A DNA stretch of 63,213 nucleotides, counting the filler, from an uncultured archaeon (lineage in GTDB: Archaea; Nanobdellota; Nanobdellia; Woesearchaeales; CAIVOO01): assembly GCA_903842985.1 (NCBI GenBank). It is 7 parts of 7 records of this genome, joined end to end, with 100 filler letters (N's around TTAATTAATTAA, not from the genome) between each part and the next. Parts side by side here need not be neighbours in the genome. Positions count along the whole stretch, not along the records: positions 1 to 13,445 come from CAIMOB010000001.1; 6 more parts are not named here. One strand, given 5' to 3'. Below are positions 55 to 59,424 of the stretch, one piece after another. The translations under genes were made by a program, and so were the position numbers. The notes under the pieces are model-generated. The model did not search any database and had not been told where the DNA came from. It saw nothing but the letters and a program-made list of their open reading frames with translations. Numbering within the stretch: the first letter of the stretch is position 1; each line of letters opens with the position of its first letter.

Positions 55-654
55 TTACCTGCTTGCGTCAGCCTGTCTTTCCAATTCGTTCTTCTTGGAC
101 ATTGCCTGCGAGCCCATCTCTCTCTTGTATGCCAGGATTATCTCATCTGCAAGCGTCTCAGGCGACTTCTTCTTGCTGTGGAACTTTTTCTGGTATGCTG
201 ACTGGACCATCTGTCTCAAACAAATATCAATCCTTCTCTGCGGAGCGCATTCAACTGCCTTCGGATACCTTGCTCCCCCGTATTCAATCGTGACAATCTC
301 TTCTCTTGGAGCTGCGTTCTCCAATGCCTTCACAAAAACAGCAATAGGATTCTGACCTGTCTTCTTCTCTATTATATTGAACGCCTTCTCGACAACATCA
401 CTTGCTGTCTGGGATTTTCCGCCGCAAACACCTGAAGACCTGAAATGCTTCTTTCCCTTGTGGCCCGGCTGCATCAGTTTGTTGATTAATCTTTCAACAA
501 TAAAAATCTTTGATTTGTGAAACTGCTTTCCTGCATATTTCGCGCCTGTCTTCGGCATCAGCTTCGGCTCAAGAACAATGTAATTCTGAAGCCCAGGGTC
601 ATCTATCTTAATTCCTGCTGTGCTCCATTTTCCGAATACTAGTATCTCGCTCAT
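55..654 (-). CDS. rps7: 30S ribosomal protein S7 (uS7)
   Basis: Archaeal S7 motifs (IVERLINKLM, NAAPREE, ELERQADASR); follows S12. Confidence 0.97.
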   Translation of the reverse strand: MSEILVFGKWSTAGIKIDDPGLQNYIVLEPKLMPKTGAKYAGKQFHKSKIFIVERLINKLMQPGHKGKKHFRSSGVCGGKSQTASDVVEKAFNIIEKKTGQNPIAVFVKALENAAPREEIVTIEYGGARYPKAVECAPQRRIDICLRQMVQSAYQKKFHSKKKSPETLADEIILAYKREMGSQAMSKKNELERQADASR

Positions 655-706
655 TTTAACGAACCTCGTGAGTTAAAATGCTGCAAATCGAAGATTTGCA
701 TCATTT
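651..706 (-). repeat. Start-codon double-hairpin element, copy A1 (S12/S7 junction)
   Basis: Sense: AAATGA TGCAAATC-TTC-GATTTGCA G CATTTTAAC-TCACGAGGTTC-GTTAAAATGA; similar copies at 1136, 47870, 50273. Confidence 0.9.
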
Positions 707-1138
707 CCTTGCCTTCTCAAGCTTTCCGTGCCTTAAAGCCAATAGTGATTGGTCATTAACCTTGATAACCTGCCATCTGACTCCTGGAATATCTCCCATG
801 GCCCTGCCTTGTTTTCCGCCGATGCACTCTACAAGAACTTCATCGTGCTCGTCAATAAGCTTGATGGCGCCGTCGCCAGGTGCAAAAGCTGTTATCTGCC
901 TTCCATTCTTAAGAAGCTGGACTCTTACAGCTTTTCTCATTGCTGAGTTCGGCTGTTTTGCCTCTAGCTGGACCTTTTCAAGCACAATTCCCTTTGCCTG
1001 CGAAGCTCCTTCCATCGGGTCGAACTTGATTTTGGTGCCCAGAGTCCTTCGTATGTATCTCTTATCGCACCATCTTGATTTCTTCCTTCTCTTCTTCAGC
1101 TTCGATGCTGAATTCATTCCACTTGATTTGCTTCCCAT
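701..1138 (-). CDS. rps12: 30S ribosomal protein S12 (uS12)
   Basis: [11 protein letters not shown] and GDIPGVRW motifs; start trimmed to MGSK. Confidence 0.97.
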
Positions 1139-1197
1139 TTTTATGAACCTCGTGAATAAAAATACCAGCAAATCTCAGATTTGCGCTGCATTTTTAT
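1136..1197 (-). repeat. Start-codon double-hairpin element, copy A2 (nusA/S12 junction)
   Basis: Sense: ATAAAAATG CAGC GCAAATC-TGA-GATTTGC TGG TATTTTTAT-TCACGAGGTTC-ATAAAAATG. Confidence 0.85.
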
Positions 1198-1613
1198 TGC
1201 ACCTTGATTTCCTTTATTTCAAAATACCGCCTTGCCTGGTTCTCCAGTCTCCTCAAATTCTCAGCAGCCCTTCCGATGAGCATGCCTCTTGTCTTTGAGT
1301 CGATTGCGGTAAGCGTAATTATGCCCTCGCTCTCCTCAATGTCCATCAGCTTCAGCGGATGAATAAGGTTTTTGATGAATTCAAAGACCTTCTCGTTGAA
1401 TTCGACTATTTTAATCTTTCTTTTAAGCATGTCCGACAGCCTTCTTACATTCGAGGCGTTCTTGCCTATTGCCCTGCCCATCTCTCCCGGCTGGACAACA
1501 AACACCAGCATGCCTTCCTCAGCAAAGCAATCCTTAAGGTTTGCCTTGGTCAGCGTCTGAAACATTGACATGAACTTCATCATGTTTACGTCGTAGCTGA
1601 TCTTCAAAGTCAT
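1194..1613 (-). CDS. nusA: Archaeal NusA (KH domains)
   Basis: GRAIGKNASNV and LIGRAAEN KH loops; between L30e and S12. Confidence 0.95.
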   Translation of the reverse strand: MTLKISYDVNMMKFMSMFQTLTKANLKDCFAEEGMLVFVVQPGEMGRAIGKNASNVRRLSDMLKRKIKIVEFNEKVFEFIKNLIHPLKLMDIEESEGIITLTAIDSKTRGMLIGRAAENLRRLENQARRYFEIKEIKVQ

Positions 1614-2541: not shown

Positions 2542-2964
2542 ATGAAAGAAAAATACCAAAAAATAACAGTCGGCGGATTCTTATGCCACAAAGGAAAAGT
2601 ATTGGTTGTCAGAAGGTCATCTGCAGAGCCCTACCTAACTGGCTTCTATGAGTTGCCTGGCGGAAAAGTGGAGTTTGGGGACCATCCTGAAGAAAGCCTT
2701 GAAAGGGAATTCATGGAGGAAGTGAATCTGAAAATTATTCCTTTGCACCCCTACAGGATATTTACATACATTTCTGACAACGGAAATCGTCATACTGTTG
2801 AACTGGTTTATCTCGTAAAATTAGATGATGATGTCAAGAATGTAAAATTAAGCGAAGAGCACAATGATTTCAAATGGATTTCAGCTGATGAAGCTGATTC
2901 TTTAAAAATGAGCGATGAAATAAAAACAAACATCAAACTTGGTTTTAAAGAAATTAAAGAATAA
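2542..2964 (+). CDS. NUDIX hydrolase (MutT-like)
   Basis: Nudix box GGKVEFGDHPEESLEREFMEEVNL and LSEEH motif. Confidence 0.9.
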   Translation: MKEKYQKITVGGFLCHKGKVLVVRRSSAEPYLTGFYELPGGKVEFGDHPEESLEREFMEEVNLKIIPLHPYRIFTYISDNGNRHTVELVYLVKLDDDVKNVKLSEEHNDFKWISADEADSLKMSDEIKTNIKLGFKEIKE

Positions 2965-2965
2965 T

Positions 2966-4102
2966 TTATTCCTTCTTCTTCGCCTTCAGCACAGGCATTC
3001 CAGTCCCAAGCGGAACAACCTGGTTCAGCATGACGTTCTCAATCACGGAATGAAGCTTGTCCTCTTCGCCGACTAGGCTTGCCCTCATTATGTGCTTGAT
3101 TGGCGTCTCGAATGATGCTCTTGCAAGAACGCTGGATTTCTCGTTAACAACGCCGTATCTTGTGATTCCCTTGATTGCTCCGGATACGCACATTGTGTCA
3201 GAGATTATCATCAGGTGCCTTATGTCAATCTTAAGCCCCTGCGCTTTTATGACTTTCAGAAGCTCGTCAATTATAGTTTCCCTTGCAGCCTCTATTCCAA
3301 GCGTAGCAGCAATCTCATAAATATCATTTGAAGTTGTCCTTTCCTTGTCAACCCATTCCAATGCAAGAACTGCCTTCAGGTTTGAGCCGGCTGTCAGGAC
3401 AATGTACTCGCTTCCCCTCTTGACAGGAAGCACCTGCGTAACTCCCTTGATTCCGGAAATGTGCGTCTCCTTCAGCTTTTCCTTCAGCTTGTAAAGCGAG
3501 TTCAGGTTCGCATCCTTATCCTCAAGCTTCGCGATTATCGAAACTGTATCCTGCTTTATCTTCAGTGACTTCATTGCTTTCGAAAGCGTTTTTGAAAGAT
3601 TGGCAAGCGTCAAATCAAGGTCCTTGAGTTTCTGCTCGTCGATGTCAACCTTGATTATCATGTCCGCGATGTTCACCAGGAATTCTGTTGCAACATCCTT
3701 CAGCTTTATTTCCTTGACAAGCAGCGCCTGCTTCTTCACATTTTCCTTTTGATTGTAGGGCGCGTTCAGGTAAATCTCCATCATCGGTGTTGAAATGGTT
3801 TTCCTTGCGTCAAGAATCTCAATTATTCTCGGCAGTCCCATTGTGACGTTCATCTCAGAAACACCCGAGAAGTGGAATGTGTCAAGCGTTGCCTGCGTTC
3901 CCTGCTCTCCGATTGACTGCGCTGAAAGCAGCCCGACGCATTCGCCGGCATCCAGCTTTGATTTCTCGTATTCAGCGTGCACAGCTTCAAGTATCTTGCG
4001 AACCTTTGCTGCATCTGCCTTCTCAGGCAGATTCGCCTTTATTTCGTCAATAATCAGCTTCGGAAGCTTTTCCTCGTATTCCTTAAAAATTTCGTCTGTC
4101 AT
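2966..4102 (-). CDS. rpoA2: DNA-directed RNA polymerase subunit A''
   Basis: SIGEQGTQATLDTFH and VLARASFETP motifs. Confidence 0.97.
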   Translation of the reverse strand: MTDEIFKEYEEKLPKLIIDEIKANLPEKADAAKVRKILEAVHAEYEKSKLDAGECVGLLSAQSIGEQGTQATLDTFHFSGVSEMNVTMGLPRIIEILDARKTISTPMMEIYLNAPYNQKENVKKQALLVKEIKLKDVATEFLVNIADMIIKVDIDEQKLKDLDLTLANLSKTLSKAMKSLKIKQDTVSIIAKLEDKDANLNSLYKLKEKLKETHISGIKGVTQVLPVKRGSEYIVLTAGSNLKAVLALEWVDKERTTSNDIYEIAATLGIEAARETIIDELLKVIKAQGLKIDIRHLMIISDTMCVSGAIKGITRYGVVNEKSSVLARASFETPIKHIMRASLVGEEDKLHSVIENVMLNQVVPLGTGMPVLKAKKKE

Positions 4103-8501: not shown

Positions 8502-9986
8502 TTACTTCAGCGGAATCAGCCCAAGCCCCTTTAGATTTTTCATTATTGAGTCGTCAGGCATCTCCTGCGACACTGTTGCAAGCATTGCAAGATTTTTCCT
8601 CAAGCCGATGTTTGTTCCTTCAGGAGTTTCAATCGCGCACAGCCTTCCGAGATGTGTCGGATGAAGCGCCCTTGCCTCGAAATTCTCCTGGCTTGATGAT
8701 AATGGTGAAACAACTCTCTGCAAATGTGAAATCATGTCAAGGAAATTATTCCTCTGGATTCTCTGTGAGATTCCCTCCCTTCCGCCTATCCATGAGCCGG
8801 TTGCCATGGACGAGTAAATCCTCTGGGTCAGGAGCTTGTCCCTTATGATTACTTTTATTGAAGGGAACTTGCCTCTCTTGACAATTCTCTGGAAATTGTA
8901 AAGCAGGTCGCCGATAAGGACTTTTAAGTTCGCCCTCATCAGGTCAGCGAGCAGGTCGCCTGAAAGCTTGAGCCTCTTGTTCATGTAATTATCCTTGTCA
9001 TCTTCAGGAAGGACTCCGTTTGAAACGTCAATGAACTTCTTGAGCATCTTGCACAGATTGTATGCCTTGAACTGCCTTTCATTTATCTGCGTCCCGAGGT
9101 TCGGAAGCAGGAAGCGGTCTATGATTTCCTTCATCCTTTCAACCCTCACGTCCTTTGCCTGCGTTATCCCTATCTTCTTTGCAATGTAATCCATCGCATC
9201 CTCTTCTGTCTTCACGTCGGAAAACTCAGAGAGGTTGATTATTGCCTCGTCATACTGCTTGTCTGAGGAGATTGACCTCATTATCTCCTCATCCTTTGTC
9301 ATGCCGAGCGCCTTTATGATTATGATTAGCGGCACCCTCTTGACCCTTGTGAATGTCAGGTAGAAAATCCCGTCCTTCAGCCTCTCGAATGTGTGCGGTA
9401 TTTTGTACGCCTCCTTCTCGCAGAAAACCTTGCCTATGTACTCTGAAAGGCCTGTTGAAGTCTTTTCGACAAGGAACTTGTTCGGCGCCAAATCCTCTAC
9501 GCTGATAAGGACTTTCTCTGTACCGTTGATTATGAAATAGCCGCCTGGGTCGTCAGGATCCTCCTTCTGCTGGATTAGCTCTTCCCTTGAAATCTTGTAG
9601 AGGTTGCAGTATTTTGATTTCAGCATCACAGGTATGCTTCCTATCTGTGTTGTGAATGTCTCCCTCTGGATGCCGTTGATGTGCGAGGAAACCTCAATGA
9701 AGCACGGCGCGGCGTATGTCAGCTTCCTCAGCCTGGCCTCCATCGGATAGATTTTTCTCTTAGAGCCGTCCGCCTCTGTTATTTCAGGCTTCTGCACCCA
9801 GATCTTGTCAAGCTTTATCTTGAATTCATCGACGTTGTGCGGGATTATTGTAGGCTCTATGTCCTTGTTTTCAGCTATGATCTTGCTCAGCTCAACCTCG
9901 ATGAAGTTGTTAAATGATTCAATGTCTGCGTCAACCAGGCTTCTCTCTTCGAAGAACTTTTTAATCAGAATGCGCATCTTATCCAT
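8502..9986 (-). CDS. rpoB2: DNA-directed RNA polymerase subunit B''
   Basis: PMEARLRKLTY, GYFIINGTEKV, ETPEGTNIGL motifs. Confidence 0.98.
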   Translation of the reverse strand: MDKMRILIKKFFEERSLVDADIESFNNFIEVELSKIIAENKDIEPTIIPHNVDEFKIKLDKIWVQKPEITEADGSKRKIYPMEARLRKLTYAAPCFIEVSSHINGIQRETFTTQIGSIPVMLKSKYCNLYKISREELIQQKEDPDDPGGYFIINGTEKVLISVEDLAPNKFLVEKTSTGLSEYIGKVFCEKEAYKIPHTFERLKDGIFYLTFTRVKRVPLIIIIKALGMTKDEEIMRSISSDKQYDEAIINLSEFSDVKTEEDAMDYIAKKIGITQAKDVRVERMKEIIDRFLLPNLGTQINERQFKAYNLCKMLKKFIDVSNGVLPEDDKDNYMNKRLKLSGDLLADLMRANLKVLIGDLLYNFQRIVKRGKFPSIKVIIRDKLLTQRIYSSMATGSWIGGREGISQRIQRNNFLDMISHLQRVVSPLSSSQENFEARALHPTHLGRLCAIETPEGTNIGLRKNLAMLATVSQEMPDDSIMKNLKGLGLIPLK

Positions 9987-10215
9987 GCGTCACACTCCGG
10001 TAATACATTGACTCTCCCGCTGTCAGGCTTTTTCTTGCTATTTTGACGACATCTCCTTCCTTAGCATCAAGATGTGCAATTGCAGGATCAATGTCTAGAA
10101 TCTTTGGAAGCTCCTTTATTGTCAAATCATATTTCTTGAAAAGTTCCTGCTTCTCCTTTTCAGAAAGCTTGGTGTGCTTTGGGATTATGGTGTGTTTCTG
10201 TTCTTTTTCAGCCAT
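9979..10215 (-). CDS. rpoH: DNA-directed RNA polymerase subunit H (Rpo5)
   Basis: HTIIPKH, LPKI..DP and RKSLTAG..YYR motifs; start trimmed to MAEK. Confidence 0.95.
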   Translation of the reverse strand: MAEKEQKHTIIPKHTKLSEKEKQELFKKYDLTIKELPKILDIDPAIAHLDAKEGDVVKIARKSLTAGESMYYRSVTHG

Positions 10216-10233
10216 GTTTACCCTCGATTGGAA

Positions 10234-10323
10234 CGGGCCGGACGGGATTTTCAAGATTTGTTTTTGAACCCGCGACCACCTCATTAAAAGTGAGGTGCGC
10301 TAGCCAGACTGCGCTACCGGCCC
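10234..10323 (-). tRNA. tRNA-Lys(TTT) with 15-nt non-canonical intron at 59/60 (10248-10262)
   Basis: Acceptor GGGCCGG/CCGGCCC; anticodon arm CCTCA-CTTTTAA-TGAGG; T-loop forms BHB TTCA-AAA...TGAA-AAT. Confidence 0.9.
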
Positions 10324-10395
10324 AGTTTCAAAAACAGGGGAAGAGCCCTGGTGAGGGAAACCCCCGTTTTTGAGCGTAATTTTTATAAAAAAATA

Positions 10396-10526
10396 CGCCC
10401 TGGCCGGGATTTTCAGAGTGATATTGAAAATATCCTTTTTGAACCCGGGTCGAAGCCGATCTGTAGTTCTTTTCAAATTTTTGAACTTCGACAGGGCTTC
10501 ATGATAGGCCACTACACCACCAGGGC
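10396..10526 (-). tRNA. tRNA-Asp(GTC) with two introns: 37/38 (10459-10488, 30 nt) and 59/60 (10410-10437, 28 nt)
   Basis: Acceptor GCCCTGG/CCAGGGC; BHB CTGT-CGA...ACAG-ATC restores loop CTGTCGC; BHB TTCA-AAA...TGAA-AAT restores TTCAAAT. Confidence 0.9.
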
Positions 10527-10711
10527 TTATTTTTGGTTAATACATGCGAAATCTGTCTCCTTTTGCATAGATAAGGCTATTTTAAGACTTATTTAGCTAA
10601 GAAGGTAAGATTTTGCATACTTTTACTATAAAATTTTGTATTTATAAATATTTCGTTTTTAAATATAAAGAACAAAATAAAAAAGAACTAAAATCTTGTA
10701 TGGTCAGTTAC

Positions 10712-10879
10712 TTAGAACTTCTTTCTTTTTGAGTAACATTCCCTGCAGTAGACTGGTTTTCCTTCTGTTGGCTTGAAAGGAACTTCGCATTCCTGCCCAC
10801 ATTCAGAGCACGTAGCCTTGTGCATTTCTCGCGGTCCGAAAGAATCTCTTCTGAATCCGCCTTTTCTGTCTTCTCTCAT
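10712..10879 (-). CDS. CxxC-x17-CxxC domain protein (55 aa, absent from the ORF track)
   Basis: Translated by hand: MREDRKGGFRRDSFGPREMHKATCSECGQECEVPFKPTEGKPVYCRECYSKRKKF; GGAGG upstream. Confidence 0.9.
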   Translation of the reverse strand: MREDRKGGFRRDSFGPREMHKATCSECGQECEVPFKPTEGKPVYCRECYSKRKKF

Positions 10880-10972
10880 TTTTCGTTTCCTCCTAATACA
10901 TAAAAAAAGCCTTTAAGGCCTGGTTTATGTCTATTTTCACAGAGTTAATTGCACTCATTTATAAAGTTTATG

Positions 10973-11350
10973 CTAAGACTTCCACAGCCCATGTATATTG
11001 CAGTATGCCCTGGCTGCGATCTTTTTTGCCTCTATGCAGAATTCCGCCTCTGGCCTGTCTCCTAGCTTTAGGTGCTTCCTGTATATTCTTCCGTCTGCCA
11101 TTAGTTCTATGAAGTCTATATAGTGTTTCAGCTCCATTGGATGCGGGATAGAGCCGACTTTTACCCTGATTCCTGTGCTTGTTTTTTCAATTACAGGCAC
11201 GTGCTTCTCCTTAAGCTCATCTGCAATTGTCTTTTCTGCCAAAAGCTCCATTGGCTTGTCGCAGCAGACCAACTGCCCCATTCCCGGGTCAAGAACTTCA
11301 ACTATGTTCCCGCAGACATTGCACTTGTAAATTTGGTTTAGTTCAGTCAT
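10973..11350 (-). CDS. dfx: Desulfoferrodoxin / superoxide reductase
   Basis: YKCNVCGN...CC desulforedoxin site; EKHVP, HPM...H, CNIHG. Confidence 0.95.
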
Positions 11351-13445: not shown

Positions 13446-13545
13446 NNNNNNNNNNNNNNNNNNNNNNNNNNNNNNNNNNNNNNNNNNNNTTAATTAATTA
13501 ANNNNNNNNNNNNNNNNNNNNNNNNNNNNNNNNNNNNNNNNNNNN
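13446..13545. other. Artificial contig linker
   Basis: N run + TTAATTAATTAA + N run, 100 bp. Confidence 0.98.
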
Positions 13546-21448: not shown

Positions 21449-21548
21449 NNNNNNNNNNNNNNNNNNNNNNNNNNNNNNNNNNNNNNNNNNNNTTAATTAA
21501 TTAANNNNNNNNNNNNNNNNNNNNNNNNNNNNNNNNNNNNNNNNNNNN
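21449..21548. other. Artificial contig linker
   Basis: N run + TTAATTAATTAA + N run. Confidence 0.98.
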
Positions 21549-23289: not shown

Positions 23290-23389
23290 NNNNNNNNNNN
23301 NNNNNNNNNNNNNNNNNNNNNNNNNNNNNNNNNTTAATTAATTAANNNNNNNNNNNNNNNNNNNNNNNNNNNNNNNNNNNNNNNNNNNN
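23290..23389. other. Artificial contig linker
   Basis: N run + TTAATTAATTAA + N run. Confidence 0.98.
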
Positions 23390-32413: not shown

Positions 32414-32513
32414 NNNNNNNNNNNNNNNNNNNNNNNNNNNNNNNNNNNNNNNNNNNNTTAATTAATTAANNNNNNNNNNNNNNNNNNNNNNNNNNNNNNN
32501 NNNNNNNNNNNNN
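32414..32513. other. Artificial contig linker
   Basis: N run + TTAATTAATTAA + N run. Confidence 0.98.
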
Positions 32514-46863: not shown

Positions 46864-47742
46864 TCACAACTCCTTGTAAATCTCTTCTGCGGTTTTCTTC
46901 AGCTCTTCAAGAGGAATGTCAGGTATCTTTTCCTTGGGCACGCCGTGGACTTCAAACAAGTCGAATATCCGCTCTGCGGCTTTCCCGTAATAAGAATCTT
47001 TTATCTGAATAAAATAATCCAAATCCATTATGACATTGTAAGACGGCGCCCTGACAAATGAGCCGACATAGGCCTTTACTTCGCCCGGCACATTCATATT
47101 TTTATCTTCATTTCTTAAATGCTCAATCTCATGCTGGACGTAGCTCTCCACCAGGTTATTGTAGATGTTCTGTCTCGTCTCCTCGTCATTCTTGCCCTTC
47201 ATTGATTCGTAAAACCTTGCATTAACCTTTGCGGGGAAAAAATCCACATCCTTTGATTTGTAAAGCTCAAAAACTCCGTTAGTGAGCGACTTCATTTTCT
47301 TGTCGTCTATGAATATCCTTCCATACAGATTAAATGCATTGGGATTGTCAAGAGATGTGCCGGCAGATGTCAATGGCTCATACATTATGACATCATACTT
47401 ATTTCCATTGTCAACTGCTTTTCTTATCGGCTTTGTTAGCTTTCCAAGAAGATTTTGGCGGTAAAAGTATCCCCACTTATCTATTAATTCGTTTTCAAGC
47501 TCCTCATGCGTTTCAGGAATTTCAACGCATCTGCTTAACTCTTCAACAAGTTTTATTTTTTCTTCGCGGTTGTCTTCAACTACGAATCTTTTCATTGAGT
47601 TTTCAATTATATTATTGCAGTAATTGCCAATAACATTTCCAACAGGGTCGTTTGGCTTTGCTGGGGACGATGCTAATGCCGGAGCATTTGCTACAAAAGG
47701 CAAAAGAAATCCTGCAGTTAACAGCCAGTTCTTGAGCTTCAT
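46864..47742 (-). CDS. Secreted HExxH protein (putative zincin-like peptidase)
   Basis: Signal peptide MKLKNWLL...ALA; QHEIEH...GEVKAY. Confidence 0.6.
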   Translation of the reverse strand: MKLKNWLLTAGFLLPFVANAPALASSPAKPNDPVGNVIGNYCNNIIENSMKRFVVEDNREEKIKLVEELSRCVEIPETHEELENELIDKWGYFYRQNLLGKLTKPIRKAVDNGNKYDVIMYEPLTSAGTSLDNPNAFNLYGRIFIDDKKMKSLTNGVFELYKSKDVDFFPAKVNARFYESMKGKNDEETRQNIYNNLVESYVQHEIEHLRNEDKNMNVPGEVKAYVGSFVRAPSYNVIMDLDYFIQIKDSYYGKAAERIFDLFEVHGVPKEKIPDIPLEELKKTAEEIYKEL

Positions 47743-47873
47743 TTTCCCTCCAGATACTCCCTCAAAGCGCATTCCACGAAATGGCTCCTGTTCCTAAACT
47801 TTGGCGCTCTTGATTTCTCTATTATCTTTAGAACAATATCCTCTTCCAGTGTTATGCTAAGGTTGTGCTTCAT
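47739..47873 (-). CDS. CopG/ribbon-helix-helix protein (44 aa, absent from the ORF track)
   Basis: MKHNLSITLEEDIVLKIIEKSRAPKFRNRSHFVECALREYLEGK; ATGA overlap with the next gene. Confidence 0.8.
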   Translation of the reverse strand: MKHNLSITLEEDIVLKIIEKSRAPKFRNRSHFVECALREYLEGK

Positions 47874-47927
47874 TTTAACGAACCTTGTGAGTTAAAATGT
47901 CCGCAAATCATGATTTGCGTCATTTTA
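47870..47927 (-). repeat. Start-codon double-hairpin element, copy A3 (5' UTR of RHH gene)
   Basis: Sense: TAAAATGA CGCAAATC-AT-GATTTGCG GA CATTTTAAC-TCACAAGGTTC-GTTAAAATGA. Confidence 0.9.
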
Positions 47928-50275: not shown

Positions 50276-50331
50276 AATGACGCAAATCACGATTTGCGGA
50301 CATTTTTAACTCACAAGGTTCATTAAAAATG
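50273..50331 (+). repeat. Start-codon double-hairpin element, copy A4
   Basis: TAAAATGA CGCAAATC-AC-GATTTGCG GA CATTTTTAAC-TCACAAGGTTC-ATTAAAAATG. Confidence 0.9.
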
Positions 50332-50826
50332 GTCAGTTTCATGGAGGTTGCCGGCGCAAGACCTGTTGCGCTCATCACAACAAGAGCGGACGTTGATGTC
50401 CTGGGGAAGAAAACATCGAAAGACAATGTTTTCACATGCTCCTGGAACATGCCTTTGTCATTTAACCCGGCATTGTATGCAATAGCTGTTGGGAAACAGC
50501 GGTTTTCCTACAGGCTCATAAAAAGCTCGCAGTTGTTCGTAGTGAACTTCATTCCGGCGACGCTGAAAAAGGAAGCTGTCTACTGCGGAACGCAGTCAGG
50601 CGAGTTCATTGACAAGTTCAAGGAAGCGAAGCTTAAGACAGAAGAGGCTGAAAATATTGAGTGCCTCCGGCTGAAAGACGCCGTTGCTTTCCTCGAATGT
50701 GAGGTTGTCAATGAAATAGAGGCAGGCGACCATGTGCTGTTTGTCGGCAGGGTCGTGAATTCAAAGATTAATGCTGATAAAAAGAGGCTATATCATATAA
50801 CAGGAGATAAATTTGAGGTGATTTAA
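50329..50826 (+). CDS. Flavin reductase family protein
   Basis: SFNP, FVVN, CG..SG...DKF, LECEV...AGDH.LFVG.V. Confidence 0.9.
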   Translation: MVSFMEVAGARPVALITTRADVDVLGKKTSKDNVFTCSWNMPLSFNPALYAIAVGKQRFSYRLIKSSQLFVVNFIPATLKKEAVYCGTQSGEFIDKFKEAKLKTEEAENIECLRLKDAVAFLECEVVNEIEAGDHVLFVGRVVNSKINADKKRLYHITGDKFEVI

Positions 50827-54773: not shown

Positions 54774-54873
54774 NNNNNNNNNNNNNNNNNNNNNNNNNNN
54801 NNNNNNNNNNNNNNNNNTTAATTAATTAANNNNNNNNNNNNNNNNNNNNNNNNNNNNNNNNNNNNNNNNNNNN
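54774..54873. other. Artificial contig linker
   Basis: N run + TTAATTAATTAA + N run. Confidence 0.98.
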
Positions 54874-59324: not shown

Positions 59325-59424
59325 NNNNNNNNNNNNNNNNNNNNNNNNNNNNNNNNNNNNNNNNNNNNTTAATTAATTAANNNNNNNNNNNNNNNNNNNN
59401 NNNNNNNNNNNNNNNNNNNNNNNN
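59325..59424. other. Artificial contig linker
   Basis: N run + TTAATTAATTAA + N run. Confidence 0.98.

Follow-up and report, generated by a model that had tools for sequence, protein, structure and literature searches.

The genome of an uncultured archaeon of the order Woesearchaeales carries a gene-less cassette of 50-57 nt with two hairpins, which sits on AAATG starts and brings its own ribosome-binding motif, an ATG and stop codons in all frames. We consider it probable that this cassette is a mobile sequence; its founder is proposed to have arisen by fold-back copying and then to have spread by microhomology. Translation of the host gene is likely kept by the cassette's own ribosome-binding motif and ATG, and since each copy brings both, this would explain why the host tolerates it.

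The window, i.e. the whole stretch of DNA that was analyzed (63,213 nt), comprises seven contigs of an 879-kb assembly (92.65% complete; G000). The contigs are joined by N-linkers with TTAATTAATTAA at 13446-13545, 21449-21548, 23290-23389, 32414-32513, 54774-54873 and 59325-59424, which as an artefact make up the window's largest "repeat family". The window contains four copies of the cassette. Copies A1 and A2 lie in a cluster whose gene order (L30e-like, NusA-like, S12, S7) is archaeal. Copy A1 (652..704, minus strand) occupies the junction between the ribosomal protein S12 gene (701..1138, minus; Pfam PF00164), which lies between A2 and A1, and the ribosomal protein S7 gene downstream (55..654, minus; Pfam PF00177). 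Its unit is 50 nt long, with ATGs at 704-702 and 654-652 and a 6-nt direct repeat, AAATGA. Within A1, the hairpin 1 core (683..699, minus; GCAAATC-loop-GATTTGC, with a loop that differs among copies) is followed by an internal anti-target (672..680, minus; CATTTTAAC), which is predicted to pair with the upstream AAATG or the downstream GTTAAAATG, never with both at once. A Shine-Dalgarno-like motif, GAGGT (663..667, minus), lies 8 nt 5' of the S7 ATG within the loop of hairpin 2, and the fixed 3' end (652..660, minus; GTTAAAATG) provides the start codon, a TAA that ends 1 nt upstream of this ATG and a TGA that overlaps it as ATGA. A predicted mini-ORF of 17 codons (651..704, minus) overlaps S12 upstream and S7 downstream.

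Copy A2 (1136..1191, minus) lies at the nusA/S12 junction, downstream of a NusA-like KH protein gene (1194..1613, minus; Pfam PF13184). It has a unit of 53 nt, a 9-nt direct repeat (ATAAAAATG), the core GCAGCGCAAATC..GATTTGCTGGT and a predicted mini-ORF at 1191-1141 (minus). Copy A3 (47871..47923, minus) is found at the start of a 44-aa CopG-type ribbon-helix-helix gene (47739..47873, minus; Pfam PF01402) that has no coupled gene upstream; its direct repeat is TAAAATGA (8 nt) and its mini-ORF (47923-47870, minus) has the predicted peptide MTQIMICGHFNSQGSLK. Copy A4 (50277..50331, plus strand) lies on the start of a flavin-reductase-like gene (50329..50826, plus; Pfam PF01613) and has a 52-nt unit, a 6-nt direct repeat (AAAATG) and a mini-ORF of 10 codons. 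A first-pass annotation of the window had described these four copies, and its coordinates, direct repeats and mini-ORFs hold base for base, as do its ATG-to-ATG distances of 50, 53, 50 and 52 nt and the stop after 10 codons in A4. It had omitted the internal reverse-complement of the target and the presence of the same core at tRNA ends.

In the 879-kb genome, an iterated HMM recovers 20 copies, of which 19 score E≤5e-11 and one is weak (best reversed-genome decoy E=0.8), and a covariance model (R2) recovers the same 20. The two ATGs are 46-57 nt apart in 18 copies, and 106 and 110 nt apart in two copies that hold a further hairpin pair. On the coding strand, the target AAATG is followed in turn by hairpin 1 (GCAAATC-loop-GATTTGC, of which there are three versions), CATTTTAAC, a loop that contains GAGGT, and GTTAAAATG. 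The GAGGT is located 8 nt 5' of the cassette ATG and matches the anti-Shine-Dalgarno 3' end of the genome's 16S rRNA (GATCACCTCC), in agreement with the first-pass proposal that the element supplies its own Shine-Dalgarno motif and ATG. Within the hairpin 1 core, five of seven pairs are invariant in 22 copies and one pair is changed on both sides. The helix of hairpin 2 is 100% paired in the 22 aligned copies, and three of its six pairs have changes on both sides. Both helices together are paired in 98.6% of cells with four pairs changed on both sides, which was reached in 0/500 shuffles, a figure inflated by the kinship of the 22 copies. Two folds are predicted to compete, since the central segment can pair with either AAATG (z -1.9 to -2.9). 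Two other identities were considered and rejected by eye: no bulge-helix-bulge motif of an archaeal intron was seen in the copies, and for the site of a dimeric repressor the half-site spacing is variable.

Empty alleles and target sites

The copies are insertions with direct repeats of 3-10 nt, judging by sequence comparison with a congener (G001; 64% complete, 84% nucleotide identity to G000 over 446 kb aligned), because the congener is empty at 8 of the 11 comparable sites. Orthologous junctions were found in G001 for 11 of the 20 sites, three of them filled, and nine were not found. Both ribosomal junctions are empty in G001 (S12/S7 reads ...GCAAGGAAATGAGCGA and nusA/S12 reads ...ACATAAAAATGGGAAG), and the gaps in the G000/G001 alignment are exactly 50 nt and 53 nt at these two sites, respectively. 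The A3 site is empty as well, and no orthologous junction was found for A4. These alleles support the first-pass view that the element is an insertion; its statement that deletion of one unit at S12/S7 would restore an ATGA overlap describes a real allele of G001. A plain -4 overlap at S12/S7 is also present in five relatives. Among the junctions listed from 29 relatives (24 for nusA/S12 and 19 for S12/S7, with three long spacers lying outside that set), the cassette is present in none.

The reverse case also occurs, as one G001 site is filled where G000 is empty. A third congener, represented by metagenome contigs, is filled at the nusA start and at the start of another small (ribosomal-type) gene, both of which are empty in G001. 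At the Spt4 site, G000 carries the cassette, as does a third-congener contig that is closer to G001, yet G001 itself is empty, and S12/S7 is filled in a G001-like contig. These two cases suggest that precise loss between direct repeats probably also occurs and that some empty alleles may be losses. Logan contigs cross the filled nusA/S12 copy without differences in 2 of 4 runs examined, which may derive from the source sample. One contig (depth 2.8, with 2 differences in 158 nt) skips this copy and is a weak, uncounted hint of an empty allele within the species. The evidence for movement is comparative, and neither an excision intermediate nor active movement was seen. In more distant relatives, the nusA/S12 junction holds unrelated-looking hairpin inserts of 60-140 nt (L003, L010, L028 and others), which makes this junction a repeated landing site.

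Targeting of start codons, as proposed in the first-pass annotation, is seen in 19 of the 20 copies, each ending at the start codon of an ORF no shorter than 44 codons. The exception, C27, opens an 11-codon ORF. No copy lies on any of 1454 in-gene AAATG[AG] sites, and at most one (C27) lies on the approximately 157 other non-coding sites (P about 3e-4 for the non-coding sites). The C27 copy (L032 879-1107) is situated between ORFs of 46 and 11 codons, overlapped by ATGA in both genomes. An upstream stop is found at -7..+4 in 16/20 copies vs 85/238 in the background (P=1.6e-4), where the background gene calls are crude, with a cut-off of 70 codons vs 40 for the copies. Because the copies share ancestry, such tests across copies overstate their significance. 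The 19 downstream proteins scanned include six ribosomal proteins (S4, S7, S12, S28e, L18 and L30), and the non-ribosomal genes are unrelated in function: Spt4, an RNA polymerase zinc-ribbon subunit, Pcc1, a KH protein, a helicase, a HAD hydrolase, a TIM-barrel enzyme, an M50 peptidase, a flavin reductase, a ribbon-helix-helix protein and three without family.

The direct repeat has a median length of 7 nt in 28 copies (20 from G000, four from G001 and four from the third congener). Target bases preceding the ATG match the element's own end over a mean of 2.9 nt vs 1.1 nt for 918 other starts (P=6e-9), and the extra microhomology is not significant when AA is required first (P=0.07). The base after the ATG is identical on both sides in 22/28 copies. 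As the target bases match the element's end, the best reading of the repeat, on the strength of these sequences, is that a fixed end of the element shares microhomology with the target. The duplication of the start context claimed in the first-pass annotation is therefore present as direct repeats, but it is in part the element's own fixed end matching the target.

Translation through the cassette

The predicted mini-ORF of the same 28 copies ends in an ATGA overlap in 9 and within -3..+4 of the next ATG in 19, stops 11-20 nt early in the other 9, and is fused to the host gene in none. The relay is built into the fixed tail, which places a stop at either -1 or +4 in all but one of the three reading frames. 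When loop length alone was varied in one reference copy, the mini-ORF ended at -1, +4 and -18 in turn. The first-pass annotation had expected the copies to prefer stop-free frames ending at the downstream start. Selection on each copy for such a frame finds no support, since the count of relaying copies (19/28) equals the expected 18.7 (P=1.0), nine copies stop early, and the deficit of copies in the bad frame (6/28) is not significant (P=0.13). A null model with shuffled interiors (19 vs 8) was discarded as evidence, as the copies share one ancestor, which makes the frame-neutral test the appropriate comparison. In Haloferax and E. coli, coupling is almost lost at about 20 nt according to the accessible part of one report (PMC10666635), so the early-stopping copies would rely on their Shine-Dalgarno motif. 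The relay is thus a plausible property of the tail and not a demonstrated selection target. Against the view that the cassette keeps its host gene translated, the predicted folds often hide the downstream AUG, whose unpaired probability is ≤0.14 in 20/26 copies with hairpin 1 melted, and a hidden AUG could reduce expression.

The first-pass annotation had offered a leader-peptide attenuator as its alternative, and short ORFs beside alternative hairpins and a U run are indeed what such a device would contain. It is very improbable here. The peptides occur in all three frames (14, 8 and 6 of 28), range from 10 to 34 codons and have no common regulatory residue, and the lack of peptide conservation makes attenuation unlikely; the targets are unrelated and the position is internal to operons. 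The sole Rfam match within the window is a tRNA. At four loci the copies have no match at E≤0.5, and nothing reaches gathering or E≤0.5 save a weak lysine-riboswitch match elsewhere.

A host-domesticated translational switch has somewhat more in its favor, although we regard it as unlikely. According to this model, CATTTTAAC would flip between the upstream and the downstream AUG and tie initiation to upstream translation. The two mutually exclusive folds predicted above would allow this, hairpin 2 is kept via paired changes, the copies favor coupled junctions and ribosomal operons, and 3 of the 11 sites are common to G000 and G001 at 84% nucleotide identity. However, copies have been gained and lost between the congeners at most sites, the targets have no common function, and the same core lies antisense at the 3' ends of tRNAs, sites at which translation plays no part. 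Conservation of the helices would equally be expected if mobility requires them at the DNA level.

The hairpin core and a proposed route of movement

Within the genomes searched, the full tail is confined to one genus as far as sequence matching can tell: the full-tail pattern is found in 2/61 relatives, and covariance model R2 finds matches at E≤0.001 in 3/7 genomes of the family and 4/150 of the order (weakly in the latter, with 3/149 other than its own). The pattern occurs three times in metagenome_contigs and not at all in genome_contigs and viral_contigs, from which its own and near genomes may be absent. The type-B core alone is more widespread, with 52 stretches in genome_contigs (36 archaeal by title and 16 bacterial) and none in viral_contigs. 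The archaeal-titled stretches are mostly Woesearchaeota/Nanoarchaeota with some Methanosarcinales by title, and some are the same DNA as the covariance-search matches. Archaeal core sites include start codons, Shine-Dalgarno motifs and tRNA 5' ends; in antisense orientation, the core is found at the 3' ends of tRNAs and where a 103-codon gene ends. The core hairpin is asymmetric and oriented; its loop varies, and an A-G mismatch beneath the stem is conserved. A type-B core without the Shine-Dalgarno tail lies antisense at a tRNA-Arg 3' end with a 14-nt repeat (G000 C22:309-334; G001 C7:12499-12526). Head-to-tail tandem arrays of the core unit are found at L172, L185 and L186, two of which run into assembly gaps.

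Across Woesearchaeota-type genomes, the core is as a rule followed by the reverse-complement of the local target and then by a second target copy. After removal of duplicates and loci with short flanks, 37 archaeal and 14 bacterial loci were left. In the archaeal loci, the bases after the core pair with their own upstream flank at 4.35/8 positions vs 2.84 with swapped flanks (0/5000), and 8.6 nt of the upstream flank are repeated vs 3.7 with swapped flanks. The 14 bacterial loci, which are chance matches, have neither the pairing nor the repeat excess. With one locus per genome (24 genomes), pairing is 4.85/8 vs 2.89 shuffled, and 4.16 vs 2.25 without the two nearest positions. In three loci whose flank holds the first codons of a gene, a different one each time, the anti-target pairs with the flank at 13, 12 and 10 of 14 positions; at three other loci displayed, it does so at only 5-6 of 14. 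In 6/7 type-B start-codon copies, there are as many target G's ahead of the core as there are pyrimidines behind it. One sub-family of six copies pairs at only 1-2 of 8 positions, several core loci pair at 1-3 of 8 with the left flank, and in most cassette copies the anti-target pairs over 9 nt with the right-hand target copy vs 6-7 nt with the left. The better pairing with the right-hand copy and the poorly pairing core loci indicate that the anti-target is not, as a rule, templated afresh each time the element inserts. At some core loci elsewhere, target duplications reach 20-46 nt.

A second core family, ATAAAG.AAATC..GATT.TCAGA, stands behind tRNA-Gly, -Ser and -Ile genes and at other sites (G000 C4:20701, C12, C38:4483, C39, C46 and C47; G001 C13:18411). 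It has a target repeat of 11-17 nt, the target/reverse-complement/target layout in 6/7 copies by eye, and tRNA-Ile sites that are empty in the other of the two genomes. At least 20 further hairpin-rich inserts of 50-150 nt differ between G000 and G001, several of them on ATGs or tRNA ends (e.g. C13:951, C14:92715, C19:1155, C32:14218, C46:8411 and C58:24089). A tail-only version with hairpin 2, Shine-Dalgarno motif and ATG and without hairpin 1 is found at G001 C13:13108-13135, where G000 is empty, at the start of what we take to be an FtsY-like gene; the labels L40e-like, S27ae-like, S10-like and FtsY-like are presumptive gene assignments. Hairpin modules also seem to lie in frame inside proteins, resembling Rickettsia palindromic elements: a Y1 transposase at L206 (G145:C42) has an extra RNLRFLGCQKSSIF, and G000 C46 near 2732-3445 has a module in the N-terminal linker of a presumed FtsY-like protein.

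The layout of target, anti-target and target points to fold-back copying at insertion or to later correction by template switching. In the fold-back reading, which we propose for the founder, the hairpin core would be joined to a nicked or single-stranded target, fold back and copy a few target bases, and then rejoin upstream through a second turn or re-annealing, thereby duplicating the target. One founder would have captured the tail with the Shine-Dalgarno motif and AAAATG, and this fixed unit would have spread in the genus as its 3' end annealed to AAATG(A/G) through microhomology, for the most part at places in well-expressed operons where a stop meets a start. Such spread of one fixed unit would explain why the anti-target pairs better with the right-hand target copy than with the left. 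The copies would owe their persistence to the tail, which provides for initiation anew; in roughly two-thirds of them, a ribosome coming off the upstream gene could translate the mini-ORF and then reinitiate. The direct repeats would also permit precise loss. The enzymatic step may have been host replication or repair acting on a hairpin-nicked strand, a suggestion that we put forward with less than even confidence. A broader proposal is more speculative still: Woesearchaeota may harbor a gene-less mobile class in which a hairpin cap joins a gene end and primes fold-back copying, and a second cap completes a target-cap-antitarget-cap-target dumbbell that is reprogrammed for each target and spread by microhomology, with no need for a transposase of a known family.

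Because the window is seven joined contigs, the first-pass remark that it contains no transposase says little, and the whole genome was searched instead. The remark extends to the assembly as far as nine families go, since PF01541, PF01797, PF07282, PF01548, PF00589, PF01609, PF01867, PF00239 and PF13358 are all without a match in G000, which is 92.65% complete. Seven families and reverse transcriptase were searched in five core-carrying genomes, and none is present in more than 3/5. A gene-bearing full-length version of the cassette was not found in searches of genomes and contig collections, nor is any gene framed by cassette ends among the larger G000/G001 insertions listed. A MITE was rejected, as the element's ends match as inverted repeats at only 0-6/10 positions (median 2, in 20 copies), the direct repeat has no fixed length (3-10 nt, and up to 46 nt at cores elsewhere), and G000 has no IS4/5, IS630 or IS110 transposase. 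Non-autonomous derivatives of IS200/IS605 make no target duplication and use TnpA in trans; this identity was also rejected, given the direct repeats and the absence of TnpA and TnpB from G000. A 342-aa TnpB/Cas12f-like gene absent from G000 is inserted alone in G001 (C12 about 9961-11092; L241). It has a short direct repeat and 16-bp terminal inverted repeats, the latter being uncommon in TnpB-only elements.

The cassette is possibly, though doubtfully, a non-autonomous passenger of a hairpin-recognizing single-strand enzyme acting in trans, either HUH Y1/RAYT-like or of the Ssn-type GIY-YIG family. The anti-target would then have come later, by template-switch correction that lengthened the stem into the flank. 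The oriented, asymmetric hairpin with its variable loop and conserved A-G mismatch is REP-like, tandem arrays exist (L172, L185), and of 251 genomes of the order, 95 and 87 have these two enzyme families. Template switching is described as homogenizing inverted-repeat arms in the accessible part of one source (PMC8604942). Against this, the published SRM pattern or the GTAG/CGTC tag is found in 0/20 copies, and no such enzyme is present in G000, G001 or G003 (the searches covering both families in G000 and G001, and Y1 in G003). An AAATC..GATTT hairpin flanks 0/11 small GIY-YIG genes recovered from 20 loci (by eye) and 0/31 Y1 loci (scan for perfect stems of at least 7 bp). Later correction alone also leaves the 20-46 nt duplications without explanation.

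Retro-transposition of an RNA copied by the genome's reverse transcriptase is improbable. G000 has one reverse transcriptase, and the targets are well-expressed genes and tRNAs, which would suit such copying. This enzyme, however, is encoded beside an 88-nt template/variable repeat pair (L240; G000 C54:26408-29278, with a second variable copy at G000 C13:1-168) and is likely, by eye, part of a diversity-generating retroelement. Furthermore, no reverse transcriptase is present in the 4 other core-carrying genomes, including G003 at 99% completeness, the copies at tRNA 3' ends are antisense, and anti-target mismatches are not confined to template adenines.

Comparison with known elements

Mycobacterial MIRUs are mobile repeats that insert at start codons and carry an internal ORF coupled at -4, so the strategy of start-codon insertion, and with it the idea of the first-pass annotation, is already published, as the accessible portions of two sources describe (PMC12548453; PMC3184786). 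In these portions, MIRUs appear as dispersed repeats of 40-100 bp with empty and filled sites, short direct repeats and no transposase of their own described. The cassette has comparable traits, being 46-57 nt in 18 copies and 106/110 nt in two, with 16/20 copies at stop-start junctions, empty and filled sites and a direct repeat at the start codon, which is 3-10 nt vs the MIRU's fixed 4. Its mini-ORF ends in a -4 overlap in 9/28 copies, and the frame varies. In contrast to the GC-rich inverted repeats and imperfect terminal inverted repeats described for MIRUs, it is archaeal, AT-rich and without terminal inverted repeats, and it has its own Shine-Dalgarno motif, an internal reverse-complement of the target and a core also present at tRNA ends. 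Judged by these descriptions, the cassette would work like a MIRU.

Other elements have some of these features, as far as the accessible text of the respective sources goes. Neisseria REP2 and Borrelia IR-A/IR-B are 120-180 bp long, with two stem-loops, a promoter, and a ribosome-binding site and ATG immediately 5' of unrelated genes (PMC3184786). The cassette likewise has two internal stem-loops, a ribosome-binding site and ATG and no terminal inverted repeats, whereas it is ~50 nt long and operon-internal, and has demonstrated empty sites and target repeats. REP/BIME-RAYT and NTS/SRM-Ssn systems have similar short, oriented, imperfect hairpins with variable loops, dimers and tandem arrays (PMC3733652; PMC11893778). 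Unlike REP/RAYT, the cassette has no GTAG/CGTC tag 5' of the stem in any of 20 copies and no partner enzyme in the genome. It likewise differs from NTS/SRM in that the SRM pattern as published matches none of the 20 copies (2 matches genome-wide), and no ~90-aa GIY-YIG gene flanked by the repeat is found in G000/G001. The target duplication and anti-target set it apart from both REP and SRM. Yeast mitochondrial GC clusters (GC42) and fungal double-hairpin elements are also palindromic and gene-less, ~40-80 nt long and variably present among strains, with a putative target duplication and units merging into longer ones, as in the two cassette copies of 106-110 nt; these elements are organellar and GC-rich, and they lack a start-codon cassette (PMC4478555).

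The layout itself resembles yeast foldback templated inversions and ODIRA triplications, in which short inverted copies of the flank (about 5-34 bp) or direct-inverted-direct arrangements are formed via a hairpin-capped intermediate, according to the accessible parts of two reports (PMC11724301, PMC10766183). Both have a templated inverted copy of the local flank. The yeast events are accidents of repair or replication that use purely local sequence, whereas the turns of the cassette are conserved foreign loop modules found across an archaeal order. A literature search, with subscription papers outside its reach, found no published account of such elements in Woesearchaeota or DPANN. Within the literature found, a hairpin core at start codons, ribosome-binding sites and tRNA ends, accompanied by a reverse-complement of the target and a second target copy, appears to be unreported.

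When DPANN genomes are annotated, the cassettes displace the start codons that are called and give rise to small ORFs that are spurious. They indicate that a selfish sequence of 50 nt can enter a ribosomal operon, even in a streamlined archaeal genome, by means of its own initiation signals. The target/anti-target/target footprint, as measured against shuffled and bacterial controls, provides a clue to the movement of the many transposase-less hairpin inserts in DPANN archaea.
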